Position numbers and translations under genes: made by a program
Shown: piece by piece, positions 18,260 through 24,028 of the stretch
How the letters are laid out: each line of letters starts with the position of its first letter
How positions within the stretch are numbered: position 1 is the first letter of the stretch
DNA from: an uncultured Armatimonadia bacterium
GTDB lineage: Bacteria; Armatimonadota; Zipacnadia; Zipacnadales; JABUFB01
Reading direction: 5' to 3'
NCBI GenBank assembly: GCA_964542355.1
Contig: CAZIWQ010000005.1
Location: 1 to 25,008 of the forward strand
Length of the DNA: 25,008 nucleotides
Notes under the pieces: model-generated
Told to the model about the DNA's origin: nothing
The model's database searches: none
The model's input: the letters and a program-made list of their open reading frames with translations, nothing else

Positions 18260-19171
18260 GTGACTGAGTACCACCTGCAACTTCCGGGGAACTGGGTCCA
18301 CGCACAGGTTCTGGAAAACGCCCTGGGCAGGGCTGGTGAGCCACACGGGGACGTTTACGGTTCCATGCGCTGTGTGTTTCCGTCTGGCTGCAAAGTCATG
18401 GTAGACGCGTGCGTACGGCTTCTCTCACTTGTGAACCAGTTGGCGCATGTTGGAAGGCAGGTAACACTCGAATTCGAGGAAGGGCCGGATGGCACGATGG
18501 GGTACCTCGACCGGATCGGCTTCCTCGAACAGCTGGCTTCCACAGTTGCCGTAGTTCCAGCGCCTCCGGCACAGTCCGCAGGGGCTCGCTACCGCGGGCG
18601 CAATCCGGAGCTCGTTGAGCTACGGGCGATAAGCTTGGGGAAACGAGACAGAGATCTGCCACAGCAATTGGCCGACGCGGTCGTGGAGGCATGTTCCGGG
18701 CGCACTGACCGCAAGCCATTGGGGCATGCGACATATACTCTCTTTGCTGAGCTGGTCGACAATATCTTCGAGCACAGCGAGACGCAAGTCGATGGGTACG
18801 CAGCGGTGCAGGCATACCATGGTGGAGGAGAGGTCTGGGTAGCAGTATCGGATAGCGGGTGCGGGATCCTGGAAACGGTCCGACCGTCACTCAAAAACGG
18901 CTCGCTTCGGCGCCTATCAGACCCGGAACTCATTGTACATATGTTCAATGAAGGCCTGTCACGATTTGGGGCACAACGCGGATGCGGTCTACACCAGTGT
19001 GCTAGTCACGCCCTGAAGTACCAAGCCCATCTTCTGCTTCGCCTGCCGACATCTTGTCTTGAGCTGGTGCCCGGCGACGGCTGCTACGTACCCAACAAGG
19101 CATATATCCAGGCGGGCTTGCCGCTTCTCTGGGGGACGCATATCGTCTTCCAGTTCCGGCTTGACAAGTAG
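18260..19171 (+). CDS. capK: STAS-like plus GHKL (SpoIIAB-like) kinase, CapK-like
   Basis: N box FAELVDNIFEHS, G1 VSDSGCGI, G2 RGCGL; N-terminal domain with MGYLDRIGF; GTG start; adjacent STAS-wHTH gene. Confidence 0.72.
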   Translation: MTEYHLQLPGNWVHAQVLENALGRAGEPHGDVYGSMRCVFPSGCKVMVDACVRLLSLVNQLAHVGRQVTLEFEEGPDGTMGYLDRIGFLEQLASTVAVVPAPPAQSAGARYRGRNPELVELRAISLGKRDRDLPQQLADAVVEACSGRTDRKPLGHATYTLFAELVDNIFEHSETQVDGYAAVQAYHGGGEVWVAVSDSGCGILETVRPSLKNGSLRRLSDPELIVHMFNEGLSRFGAQRGCGLHQCASHALKYQAHLLLRLPTSCLELVPGDGCYVPNKAYIQAGLPLLWGTHIVFQFRLDK

Positions 19172-19193
19172 CCTCACTTCTGGTTTAATGAAG
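19161..19193 (+). promoter_or_regulatory. Near-consensus sigma70 promoter in the capK 3' end driving capS
   Basis: TTGACA (19161-19166), 17 bp, TTTAAT (19184-19189) with extended TG at 19181-19182. Confidence 0.7.
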
Positions 19194-19196
19194 GCG

Positions 19197-21017: not shown

Positions 21018-21021
21018 GTTC

Positions 21022-23277
21022 ATGACAGCCGAGCTACTAGAAGCGACCGGGGAGAGAGTGGTGCCAACTGAGCTGGTGCTTCCACAAGCGCGGGAGTTGG
21101 CGCTTAGGTTGGAGGCCGACAGCATCCCCTTTGCTAGGCTTGTGGAATGCCGGCGTCGTCCCGAGGGGGAGACTGTTGTCATGGAGGTCGGAGTGGAGGT
21201 GCCGCAGTACAAGGTTCATCCCATTGAACCTACGGAACGCATAGCGGTGACCTTCTTCGGTGCCCCCGGCTTGCCAGCAAGGATAGAGGCGCTGCGAAGG
21301 GATTTCCCAGTAGTGCCTCATCTGAACCTCCATTTGCAGGAGTACCCGAGGAGCATCTGCCTGTATGAGGAGCGCCCAGAGACCATCAGTACCCGCGCTA
21401 CGGCACCTCGGTTCGTGCGCGAGCTACGAGGATGGCTGGGGGCCACGTCGCGAGGTGAACTCCACGAGGGAGATCAGCCTCTCGAACCGGTCATTATCGG
21501 AGTTCCGGACTATCTGGTCTTACCTCCCGATCTCCTTGATGCCAAGAGCTTCGACGGCCGGCTGTATGTGACGGCGAACCGGTCCAGTGATGACAAGAGG
21601 CTCTTCCTTCTGGCGCAGGGCGAACGGCCGGAGGCCGCAGTGCCCTTCGTGGTGAGCGTACACCAGGCAGTACCCGAGATCCACGGGGTGATCCGCCGAC
21701 GCCCATCGACCCTAGCTGAGTTGGCTGACCTTGTCATGCCAGTACGTCTGGACTTACTCACAGATGTTAGGGCACGCCTCCGTGAGTGGGGGAAAGATGC
21801 TTCGCTACACGAGGCCAGGGTGATCCACGTCATCCGGTTTCCACGGGTGCGGGCAGAGGGCGGGGAGGTGGAACGCACGGACACTTGGGCATTCATGCTC
21901 GGGCAGAACGTGCGAGAGGCAGGGAAGAGGCTGGACCTGTGGGAGGAGCGGGGAGGAAAGCTGGGTGAGGTACTGACGCCGGATCCTGGCAGGCGGGGCG
22001 AAGATATCGGAGTGGGGGTGCTGATACCCATATCCGAGCTAGACCGCAGAATGGCCGCATGGCTCAACGGCCGCACACCAGGTGATGGGCCGCGCATCGC
22101 GGCTGTGGGTGCTGGAGCCTTGGGATCACAGGTGGTGATGAACCTCGCCCGTAGTGGGTTCGGCATCTGGACGCTCATCGACCCGGACCTGCTTCTGCCG
22201 CACAATGTGGCCCGTCATGCACTTCCGGGGTGGTGTGTGGGGTATTCAAAGGTTGAGGCGCTCGCAGTAATGGCGAACAGCATCCTCGCTGGCGCCCCCT
22301 CGTTTGCCGCGCTGACGGCGGACATACTCGTACCTGGCGAACGGGAGCCCGAGCTGAGGGTAGCTATGGCGGAGGCAGATGTCATCTTGGATATGTCGGC
22401 CTCGTCGACCGTGAGCAGGGCACTGGCTTGCGACCTTGAAGCAGAGGGGCGCCGGGTCTCGCTCTTTCTGACCCCGAGTGGAAGAGACCTAGTGCTCTTG
22501 GCCGAGGACAGGGCACGTCATGTGCCTCTGGACGCGGTGGAGATCCAGTTCTACCGGGCGATGGTGCATGAGGCCGAACTCGAAGGTCTGTCGACGCCAG
22601 TGGGGGAGAGGTGGCGCTACGGGCAGTCGTGCCGAGACGTTACCAGCACTCTGCCCCAAGACCTAGTGGCGCTGCATTCGGCCACTGCCGCCTGGATACT
22701 GGAAGGGGTGCTCGCGAAGCCCGCTGCGGCTATAGTGGTATGGCGCGCAGACGATGCCGGGAACGTGCATCGGGTGGATGTGCCCACGGCTCCCGTGGTG
22801 CGTTGCACGATAGGCAAGTGGACGGTTGTTACTGACGAAGCACTGCTCAGAGCGCTGAGTACCCTCCGGAGAACAAAGCTGCCAAATGAGACGGGTGGCG
22901 TTCTGCTCGGGTTCTTTGACACGAAGAGGAAGCTCATCTACATCAGTGATACAGTGGCGTCGCCTCCCGACAGTCAAGAGTGGCCAACGCTGTACATCCG
23001 TGGTTGCCAGGGTCTGCGGGAGCAAGTGGCGGCGCTCGCCCACAAGAGCGATGGTGTGCTGGAGTACGTAGGTGAATGGCATTCTCACCCTAACGGGGCT
23101 TCGACCGCAGCAAGCCTTGACGACCGGCAAGTCTTCACATGGATCGCGCAGGAGGCGGAGAAGGATGGGCTCCCGCCGGTGATGCTGATCGTCGGGGATA
23201 GTGAACGGGTAAGCTGCTTTGTCGAGGAAATGGGAATGGGAGAGCAACTGCTTCCGAGAGGAGTTCTGCATGAGTAA
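21022..23277 (+). CDS. Prokaryotic E2 - E1 (ThiF) - JAB fusion protein (Cap2-Cap3-like)
   Basis: E2: PHLN...PRSICLY; E1: VGAGALGS, DPDLLLPHNVARH, GQSCRD Cys; JAB: ETGGVLLG, GEWHSHP, SLDD. ATG 21022 is 4 bp after the MBL stop. Confidence 0.92.
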   Translation: MTAELLEATGERVVPTELVLPQARELALRLEADSIPFARLVECRRRPEGETVVMEVGVEVPQYKVHPIEPTERIAVTFFGAPGLPARIEALRRDFPVVPHLNLHLQEYPRSICLYEERPETISTRATAPRFVRELRGWLGATSRGELHEGDQPLEPVIIGVPDYLVLPPDLLDAKSFDGRLYVTANRSSDDKRLFLLAQGERPEAAVPFVVSVHQAVPEIHGVIRRRPSTLAELADLVMPVRLDLLTDVRARLREWGKDASLHEARVIHVIRFPRVRAEGGEVERTDTWAFMLGQNVREAGKRLDLWEERGGKLGEVLTPDPGRRGEDIGVGVLIPISELDRRMAAWLNGRTPGDGPRIAAVGAGALGSQVVMNLARSGFGIWTLIDPDLLLPHNVARHALPGWCVGYSKVEALAVMANSILAGAPSFAALTADILVPGEREPELRVAMAEADVILDMSASSTVSRALACDLEAEGRRVSLFLTPSGRDLVLLAEDRARHVPLDAVEIQFYRAMVHEAELEGLSTPVGERWRYGQSCRDVTSTLPQDLVALHSATAAWILEGVLAKPAAAIVVWRADDAGNVHRVDVPTAPVVRCTIGKWTVVTDEALLRALSTLRRTKLPNETGGVLLGFFDTKRKLIYISDTVASPPDSQEWPTLYIRGCQGLREQVAALAHKSDGVLEYVGEWHSHPNGASTAASLDDRQVFTWIAQEAEKDGLPPVMLIVGDSERVSCFVEEMGMGEQLLPRGVLHE

Positions 23278-24028
23278 CACTTGGCTTAGCTATCTGAAGC
23301 TGAGTGACGCTTACGATAGGAAGGCTCGTTTCGTTCCCGGGCTGCTGTCGATGCTGCCGCTACTGCCGGCGGCCGCTGCGTACCAGGTTGGTGCGCAGCA
23401 CTGGCTTGGGGCACTGATCTCAGACGTGGGGGTGGGGGCAGTGGTCGCGGTAGCCCTATCGCACCTAGCTTCCGCATTCGGGAACCGGCTACAACGCAGT
23501 CTCTGGCCTGACTGGCCGCACGATGCGCCGACAAACGAATGGCTGCAGCCGGGGAGCAAGGTGACCTCCGCACAGCAAAGACAGCTCTGGTATGAGGCGC
23601 TTCGAGACACCACTGGGTTAGATCTGGCGCAGGCGGCCGGAGTTGGCCCCCCCAAAGAGACGACGCGCACCATCAACGATGCAGTCGGTCGGGTCCGCAA
23701 TATGCTGTGGCAAGCGCCCGAGGGGGAGCGTCTCCGCTTACACAACGCGGACTACGGATTTGCTCGGAACCTGACAGGGCTCCGCATACTGTGGATCCCG
23801 TTCTCGCTTGCAAGCATGCTGAGCTGTTGGGCAGGGGTCTTCTGGCTGGATCACGGGCTGCTCTGGGCAGTGGTGTCGACCATGATTGCAGCGACGATTG
23901 TGCCAGTCGGGCTCTCTGTGCTCCCCATCTACGTCAGAGATAAGGCGCGCCACTATGCGGAAAGCTTCTTCGCAGCGTTGATGGAGGTTCACAGCGCACG
24001 GGCCAGTACGGGTACGCCGACGGGATAG
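23270..24028 (+). CDS. Predicted 4-TM membrane protein (DAY..KAR..P / NADYGFARNL motifs), candidate effector
   Basis: ATG overlaps the E2-E1-JAB stop (8 bp), GAGAGGAG RBS; two hydrophobic segments near each end around a soluble loop. Confidence 0.75.
   Translation: MSNTWLSYLKLSDAYDRKARFVPGLLSMLPLLPAAAAYQVGAQHWLGALISDVGVGAVVAVALSHLASAFGNRLQRSLWPDWPHDAPTNEWLQPGSKVTSAQQRQLWYEALRDTTGLDLAQAAGVGPPKETTRTINDAVGRVRNMLWQAPEGERLRLHNADYGFARNLTGLRILWIPFSLASMLSCWAGVFWLDHGLLWAVVSTMIAATIVPVGLSVLPIYVRDKARHYAESFFAALMEVHSARASTGTPTG

Follow-up and report, generated by a model that had tools for sequence, protein, structure and literature searches.

A probable three-gene 6A-MBL anti-phage operon under CapK/CapS control, next to and downstream of an Hma system in an uncultured Armatimonadia bacterium

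The window analysed here is the whole stretch of 25,008 nucleotides (nt) at positions 1 to 25,008 of contig CAZIWQ010000005.1 (GenBank assembly GCA_964542355.1), from an uncultured Armatimonadia bacterium. Five co-directional genes on its forward strand occupy positions 18260-24028. They comprise a predicted kinase/repressor pair (capK and capS), genes for a metallo-beta-lactamase (MBL) protein and for a fusion of E2, E1 and JAB domains, and a gene for a transmembrane (TM) protein:

18260-19171, + strand: capK, 303 amino acids (aa), GTG start at 18260 and TAG end at 19171
19188-19748, + strand: capS, 186 aa, ATG start, beginning 16 nt past the capK stop
19890-21017, + strand: MBL gene, 375 aa, ATG start with GGAGG 7 nt upstream, TAG end
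21022-23277, + strand: E2-E1-JAB gene, 751 aa, ATG start 4 nt past the MBL stop, TAA end
23270-24028, + strand: TM gene, 252 aa, ATG start, 8-nt overlap with the E2-E1-JAB stop

An earlier note, made from the sequence alone, had described five co-directional genes with these domains, and the description was borne out by the gene junctions and by matches in Pfam, NCBIfam and the PDB. Chance open reading frames are ruled out, because homologues and conserved synteny are found in dozens of genomes. The longest open reading frame for capS would start at 19059, but this start was rejected since it would overlap capK. Within 18260-24028 the intergenic gaps measure 16, 141 and 4 nt, and there is one overlap of 8 nt, ATGAGTAA, in which the ATG of the TM gene overlaps the stop of the E2-E1-JAB gene. 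This start/stop overlap couples the TM gene translationally to its neighbour; the note, too, had called the membrane protein coupled. The gaps are too small to leave coding space for either a ubiquitin-like protein (Ubl) or a cGAS/DncV-like nucleotidyltransferase (CD-NTase), and Pfam and PADLOC gave no match to a CD-NTase model for any of the five proteins.

Judged by their sequences, the MBL protein and the E2-E1-JAB fusion belong to the curated 6A-MBL families and keep all of their active-site residues. Against the NCBIfam model 6A-MBL_enzyme (NF058524, cut-off 220) the MBL protein reaches 375.6 bits and covers profile positions 1-346 of 346, while the fusion scores 611.5 bits against 6A-MBL_cap2_3 (NF058523, cut-off 320) over positions 1-665 of 665. 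Pfam recognises Prok-E2_A, ThiF and Prok-JAB domains in the fusion, and its adenylation domain matches the Cap2 structures 7tsq and 7to3 (E 1e-11). The NCBIfam Cap3 model is matched at E 1.2e-8, under its cut-off, and the PADLOC models for E1-E2 and JAB proteins at E-values down to 3.7e-30. The catalytic motifs, called intact in the earlier note, are conserved in at least 95% of 73 homologues: H100 and C113 in the E2 domain; G363xG365xxG368, D387, R398, K410, D457 and the catalytic C537 in the E1 domain; E623, H687xH689, S698 and D701 in the JAB domain. The locus thereby resembles the 6A-MBL system (operon type 6a of Iyer, Burroughs and Aravind 2006) in its gene order of MBL and then E2-E1-JAB fusion, in scores above the cut-offs, in its catalytic residues and in its association with mobile elements. 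It differs in having a third gene, whereas the 6A type is described as usually two genes (Iyer et al. 2006) and NCBIfam models only two proteins for it, and in being headed by CapK and CapS (together CapKS), whereas 6A-MBL relatives use CapH/CapP-like or WYL regulators.

The metal-site residues of the MBL protein, H68-x-D70-x-D72-H73 (an HxDxDH variant), H183, D223, H254 and H255, are all invariant in the alignment of homologues. Its AlphaFold2 model has a predicted TM-score of 0.82. A Foldseek search with the model gave the MBL domain of ComEC (9ic4, E 1.7e-12) and Pce, the pneumococcal phosphorylcholine esterase, as closest structures, and PADLOC comparisons show similarity to the MBL effectors LmuA, RTasMBL and Avs1a. 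Because its closest model folds are the ComEC MBL nuclease domain and a phosphorylcholine esterase, the protein is predicted to be a phosphodiesterase- or nuclease-like MBL.

The last 18 residues of the model (358-375) are disordered, with a per-residue confidence (pLDDT) below 30, and end in ...APRAG, the last residue being Gly375. The PRAG motif is invariant in the alignment, and the exact AG terminus is present in 91 of the 120 best MBL homologues. Among the loci that were fetched, the MBL protein stops at the Gly in 39 and has 1-7 extra residues in 29; PRAG is also retained (...APRAGVINQ) in the MBL protein of a Klebsiella plasmid, at 25% identity. By analogy, this tail has the signature of a C-terminus for adenylation by an E1 enzyme, with JAB-dependent trimming where it is extended. 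MBL pathways have been described as conjugating their enzyme via the E2-E1 fusion (PMC11601596), and what is conjugated would be the MBL protein itself, in the role that the CD-NTase has in type II cyclic-oligonucleotide-based anti-phage signalling systems (CBASS). The earlier note had stressed that the module has no ubiquitin and no CD-NTase. There is indeed no space for such genes, but this is no anomaly: a separate ubiquitin gene is missing because the MBL protein carries its own conjugation tail. The Bil and Bub systems share E1/E2/JAB-type conjugation in defence islands with this locus and can also be under CapKS control; they have a separate Ubl gene, however, where here the enzyme's own C-terminus would serve as substrate, and the E1 and E2 domains here keep the catalytic cysteines, unlike those of Bub.

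The two genes at the head of the module appear, from alignments, to be orthologues of the published CapK/CapS pair. The capK product has an HATPase_c domain above the Pfam cut-off (residues 159-255) and aligns with the 368-aa CapK of E. roggenkampii at 32% identity (BLASTP, E 1e-44, query residues 3-301 against subject residues 58-365), N168 of its N-box facing the published catalytic N218. The label of STAS-GHKL kinase given in the earlier note is right for this copy, which is predicted to be a Ser kinase. The N-terminal helix-turn-helix (HTH) of about 57 aa found in the prototype is missing (303 vs 368 aa, with the alignment starting at subject residue 58), and the reading frame is not extendable upstream of the GTG at 18260. 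Since deletion of the HTH from the prototype had no effect (Chambers et al. EMBO J 2026, PMC13373217), the HTH-less CapK is read as a variant of the pair and gives no ground for excluding it; it is the natural form in several lineages. Searches with CapK (tblastn) gave matches on plasmids of Enterobacter, Citrobacter, Salmonella and Vibrio. The E. roggenkampii plasmid locus encodes the 368-aa CapK, then a 182-aa winged-helix (wHTH) regulator and then a Bub operon (multiubiquitin, ThiF, DUF6527), and is of the kind used to define CapK/CapS (PMC13373217).

CapS has full-length phmmer matches in the PDB to the sequences of CapS crystal structures (9z71, E 7e-36; 9z72 and 9z73, E 7e-35). It shares 38% identity with the E. 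roggenkampii CapS, in which the published phospho-acceptor S54 aligns with S61. Its sequence is that of a STAS-wHTH repressor with S61 as predicted phospho-acceptor. In the acceptor region the window has TDASF and E. roggenkampii TDSSF, while one of the deposited CapS-like sequences reads TDAAF (9z72/9z73 compared with 9z71); this sequence, without the acceptor Ser there, may represent either a mutant protein or a CapS-like one (VapS). The pair lies directly 5' of the MBL operon and is co-directional with it, capK (stop at 19171) directly preceding capS (start at 19188) and the MBL gene starting at 19890. Candidate control elements are found at both junctions:

19161-19192 region, + strand: candidate capS promoter, TTGACA at 19161-66, a 17-nt spacer and TTTAAT at 19184-89
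19184-19192, + strand: candidate CapS site 1, a narrow imperfect palindrome, TTTAaTGAA, at the capK-capS junction
19771-19792, + strand: candidate CapS site 2, putative operator of the MBL operon, from palindromes and conservation

Site 1, which overlaps the promoter-like element TTGACA-N17-TTTAAT, aligns in register with TTAAaTTAA, the published narrow palindrome from E. roggenkampii, as well as with the sequence TTAAaTGAA found at two alphaproteobacterial loci. Site 2 contains a perfect narrow palindrome, TTCAtTGAA (19784-92), as well as the wide TTCA-N10-TGAA (19775-92), and its block TTnAnCnGnTTCAnnGAA is invariant in an alignment of five capKS-MBL loci from unrelated taxa. Its spacings of 1 bp and 10 bp equal those of the published CapS sites, the wide one of which is TTAA-N10-TTAA (PMC13373217). 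CapS-type palindromes thus occupy both expected positions and are candidate operators on the strength of their symmetry and conservation. Besides the capS ATG at 19188 there is another in frame with it, at 19197, and relatives share this pattern, ATGAAnnnnATGAAC (19184-19199). Since the first ATG lies partly within the -10-like TTTAAT, this promoter could give a leaderless capS transcript that starts at the second.

The region resembles the published CapK/CapS loci on several counts: the order capK-capS directly 5' of an immune operon, a STAS-GHKL protein with the catalytic Asn, a STAS-wHTH protein with the acceptor Ser, candidate palindromes at the capK-capS junction and 3' of capS, a position directly after a restriction-like system, and MBL operons among the cargoes. 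It differs from them in the HTH-less CapK and in half-sites that read TTCA/TGAA (and TTTA) instead of TTAA.

Taken together, we read the locus, with a probability of roughly 75% and on the evidence of sequence comparison, as a CapK/CapS-controlled three-gene 6A-MBL anti-phage operon that sits on a mobile element directly 3' of an Hma system. The combination of regulators and conjugation genes, which the earlier note did not recognise, has already been published: 7 of the 443 capKS pairs reported precede MBL operons (Chambers, Rani, Min, Villa, Corbett, EMBO J 2026; PMC13373217), and the locus is one more instance of this pairing. The sampled alphaproteobacterial capKS-MBL loci, from taxa similar to the published ones, have a patatin gene (for example L065, from a Rhizobiaceae bacterium), whereas this locus has the TM gene. 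In the published model, a CapS dimer represses both the capS promoter and the operon promoter; single-stranded DNA (ssDNA) from DNA damage or repair activates CapK, which phosphorylates CapS, so that the dimer dissociates and the operon is derepressed (PMC13373217). The derepression logic proposed in the earlier note agrees with this model. Going by the homologues, ssDNA derived from damage would here activate CapK, CapS would be phosphorylated at S61 and the MBL operon would be derepressed. By analogy with Cap2, Cap3 and the CD-NTase, the E1 domain would then adenylate Gly375 of the MBL protein, which would move as a thioester to C537 and then to C113 of the E2 domain before being ligated to a target, and this ligation would prime the enzyme. 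The JAB domain would reverse the ligation and, in relatives with 1-7 residues past PRAG, would also trim the precursor. The fold suggests that the primed MBL protein would be a ComEC-like phosphodiesterase or nuclease, and the gene neighbourhood suggests that the TM protein could act at the membrane, as an effector or partner by which abortive infection is carried out or amplified.

The TM protein has four hydrophobic helices and an all-helical AlphaFold2 model with a pLDDT of 90. Its charges predict an N-in/C-in topology, in which a helical domain of about 100 residues (approximately 75-171) is cytoplasmic, and its motifs are LSDxYxRKARF, GNRxQxxLWPxWPxDxPTN and HNxDYGFARN. There are 145 full-length homologues at about 50% identity, and a profile search of a 50%-identity library retrieved 1873 clusters, nearly all of stand-alone proteins of 230-270 residues. 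No model was matched in Pfam (by the single sequence or by 44 members, at E up to 1), NCBIfam or PADLOC, and Foldseek found no significant structural neighbour of the model in the PDB or BFVD. Channel homology is not claimed, as the best PDB matches (bacterial bestrophin and MotA) have an E-value of 0.8 and TM-scores of about 0.2.

The gene slot occupied by the TM protein was surveyed with one genome per species. An MBL relative was present in 268 genomes, of which the 70 best loci with a complete core were classified. The third gene belongs to the TM family in 35 of these 70 MBL-anchored loci and encodes a patatin phospholipase in 24, so that one or the other is present in 59; the remaining 11 have neither, although 5 of them have other small multi-TM proteins. 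The two types never occur together (0 of 70). The patatins in the slot retain their GGGxR, GxS and DGG motifs, and the Gluconobacter oxydans pGOX1 operon is one that carries a patatin. The TM gene lies directly 3' of the MBL and E2-E1-JAB genes in Desulfatiferula (after a bacteriophage exclusion (BREX) system) and on two metagenomic chromosomes, as does a family member of only 26% identity. A Clostridium perfringens plasmid operon has a member just 5' of its MBL gene (hmmsearch E 3e-33); both this operon and that of pGOX1 are in the operon type 6a list of Iyer et al. 2006. The order TM-MBL-E2E1JAB is found in L037, L049, L060 and C. perfringens, so the coupling is not strict. The adjacency of the TM gene is nevertheless not due to chance, an explanation rejected on the conserved synteny and the start/stop overlap. 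The TM gene, which the earlier note took for an "extra", is the commonest occupant of a conserved slot in this MBL clade, whether CapKS is present or not, and so a regular third component, though an exchangeable one. The same membrane protein is encoded in half of the close relatives and a patatin in a third of them. This pattern points to a step at the membrane in 6A-MBL immunity that NCBIfam, PADLOC and Pfam do not capture; no description of a membrane-directed third gene of this exchangeable kind was found in these databases or in the literature covered, which did not include van den Berg et al. 2024. That paper is said to have validated a 6A-MBL system of P. aeruginosa. The locus is a well-formed case of its kind, and the TM family that alternates with patatins is the part of it worth following.

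Several other arrangements were seen around the slot. In L030 (11975-13818) and L044 (13378-15135), a second MBL protein, ComEC/Avs1a-like, is inserted between the E2-E1-JAB and TM genes; that of L044 matches PADLOC PDC-M48B (E 1e-44). L003 has a Lactamase_B-like gene 3' of its TM gene. In Bremerella cremea (L045:13425-14237) the slot holds a 270-aa four-TM protein with a weak match (PADLOC E 3.7e-5) to Csx27, the membrane protein that accompanies type VI-B CRISPR.

On the MBL tree, loci with the same type of third gene cluster, yet the type switches between close MBL relatives (for example L030 vs L031). A slot which alternates between a phospholipase and a multi-TM protein, swapped between close relatives, has the pattern of CBASS effectors, and this raises the question of whether the MBL protein could work as a signalling enzyme and not as the one that kills. 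Once primed by conjugation, it would make a signal, either a small molecule or a product of nucleic-acid cleavage, by which the TM protein is gated or, in other genomes, the patatin activated, and there would be no effector besides the third gene. The Corbett laboratory has termed the CD-NTase, the Pycsar cyclase and the MBL "respective signaling enzymes" (PMC11601596), and the cytoplasmic domain of the TM protein is conserved, with invariant polar motifs that could bind a ligand. MBL enzymes are hydrolases, however, operons of two genes without an effector gene exist, and the patatins and the TM protein fit no model of a nucleotide-activated effector. A receiver domain common to the soluble domain of the TM protein and the C-terminal region of the patatins was looked for and rejected (hhalign probability 0.1). 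To our knowledge, no second messenger is made by an MBL enzyme. On balance, we consider signalling of this kind doubtful.

The likeness to type II CBASS extends beyond the slot. It includes Cap2-like E1 and E2 domains, a Cap3-like JAB domain, an enzyme to be conjugated that has a flexible tail ending in Gly, an exchangeable 3' slot with a patatin lipase or a multi-TM protein, and the upstream regulator set of CapW, CapH/P and CapKS. In contrast to CBASS, an MBL hydrolase replaces the CD-NTase here, E1-E2 and JAB are joined in one polypeptide, no cyclic-nucleotide chemistry is evident, and the TM protein and patatin fit no CBASS effector model. As a tentative generalisation, to which we give rather little credence, the 6A-MBL of this clade might be a three-component system with an exchangeable membrane effector (patatin or four-TM) under the control of the primed MBL protein, a hydrolase-based counterpart of CBASS in which the TM family would be a new class of abortive-infection channels.

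The TM protein could instead be a membrane receptor or conjugation target that brings a ComEC-like MBL nuclease to the inner membrane, there to degrade phage DNA as it comes in. In fold the MBL protein is closest to the nuclease domain of ComEC, whose place of action is the membrane and whose substrate is incoming DNA, translational coupling links the TM gene to E2-E1-JAB, and the soluble domain of the TM protein is predicted to be cytoplasmic. The family is also almost exclusive to MBL operons, as would be the case for a dedicated partner. The alignment shows no invariant lysine across the family, however, and a catalytically intact patatin as alternative occupant is hard to read as an anchor; the operons in which the TM gene comes first do not fit this reading well either. 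An anchor or target role is accordingly rated unlikely.

Turning back to the CapKS-controlled three-gene anti-phage operon, a number of observations weigh against it. The first is the HTH-less CapK, even if the HTH of the prototype is reported as dispensable (PMC13373217). A scan of 18000-24200 for consensus sigma-70 promoters called none; TTGACA-N17-TTTAAT was missed by it because its -10 element has T at position 2. The TM family shows no similarity to the CBASS, Pycsar or Thoeris membrane effectors in PADLOC. In the contexts inspected it almost always adjoins MBL operons, and this near-exclusive adjacency suits a generic effector no better than it does a dedicated partner. Finally, the distant 6A-MBL operons on Klebsiella plasmids have the two core genes only; not every such operon thus needs a third gene, and the MBL protein may be the sole effector. 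Three divergent members of the TM family were checked for use in other defence systems and gave no sign of it: the first belongs to an MBL operon, the second is an orphan and the third lies at the end of a contig. The orphan (L097:7001-7762) has transposases and part of a recombinase gene next to it, but neither MBL nor E2-E1-JAB genes, and is probably the remnant of a decayed operon.

The regulators of the 6A-MBL core are modular. CapK and CapS are encoded 5' of the core in five of the surveyed loci, four of the patatin type (including L065, a Rhizobiaceae bacterium) and one, from Calditrichia, of the TM type, while CapH/CapP-like HTH-M78 proteins are found at about 20 loci and WYL proteins at a few. 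As the reading of the earlier note would have it, the regulator pair and the TM gene do occur together with MBL and E2-E1-JAB elsewhere, namely at the Calditrichia locus and at L093, a locus from another sample with a TM protein of 85% identity, the same five genes and a convergent recombinase. On the Klebsiella pneumoniae plasmid p5589-mcr-8 (L088:3469-4855), a divergent WYL regulator gene lies 5' of the two-gene MBL operon. It is co-transcribed with a gene for a 172-aa protein with at least two hydrophobic helices, which is unrelated to the TM family (E 0.13) and may be a different membrane partner.

The neighbourhood of the five genes in the window is as follows:

1455-1901, - strand: NikA-like mobilisation protein, plasmid or integrative-and-conjugative-element (ICE) type backbone
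3481-4725, - strand: Rep_O-like wHTH replication protein, plasmid/ICE-type backbone
4904-5752: ParA, plasmid/ICE-type backbone
6229-7488, + strand: Rep_O-like wHTH replication protein, plasmid/ICE-type backbone
7617-18121, + strand: Hma defence system (PADLOC and Pfam), the upstream restriction-like neighbour, outside the operon
7617-11126, + strand: hmaA, SNF2 helicase with a NOV_C nuclease-like domain
11298-14156, + strand: hmaB, DUF1156 methylase
14208-15316, + strand: two small open reading frames of 201 and 168 aa, between hmaB and hmaC
15323-18121, + strand: hmaC, DUF499 ATPase
18157-18173, + strand: terminator-like hairpin and T-run between hmaC and capK (weak evidence)
24105-24902, - strand: convergent tyrosine recombinase flanking the module (Pfam Phage_integrase, E 5e-27)

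HmaA, HmaB and HmaC are full-length PADLOC matches (E = 0 each), and what the earlier note had described as a restriction-like nuclease/helicase is thus a complete Hma system. The 201-aa and 168-aa frames have no Pfam or NCBIfam match and may be unrecognised Hma components. The hairpin is not significant alone, as the scan found 4 terminator-like sites where 3.2 are expected by chance. The position of Hma directly upstream suits the suggestion, made in the earlier note, that restriction damage feeds CapK, but the suggestion is not new. Of the published capKS pairs, 88 lie directly 3' of a restriction-modification (R-M) system and about 20% are sandwiched between R-M and an immune operon, and the discussion of that work puts forward front-line restriction as the source of the DNA damage to which CapK responds (PMC13373217).

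The same surroundings bear on whether the operon serves immunity at all, or is a cassette for the response to DNA-damage stress or for mobile-element maintenance (addiction) that merely sits in a defence island. Many capKS-run operons (Bub, yegP) have no demonstrated phage phenotype and are maybe general stress responses (PMC13373217), the window has plasmid-type genes (ParA, Rep, NikA-like) besides a recombinase, and MBL homologues are common on conjugative plasmids. Against this, both core proteins pass NCBI equivalog models named for an anti-phage system, 6A-MBL is cited in the literature among the known defences against jumbo phages, and the neighbours of MBL loci, here and in relatives, are Hma, BREX, type I R-M and similar systems. 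A function outside immunity thus seems very improbable.

The search for terminal overlap, as a sign of circularity, and for a tRNA, as an integration site, found neither in the window, which is probably part of a plasmid-like element. The arrangement of the module with the convergent recombinase is also present in the close relatives L092 and L093. The G+C content is 0.57-0.62 over the five-gene module (18001-24000) compared with 0.63-0.69 in the Hma genes (7001-18000), and this lower value suggests that the module and the recombinase were acquired separately from the Hma genes.

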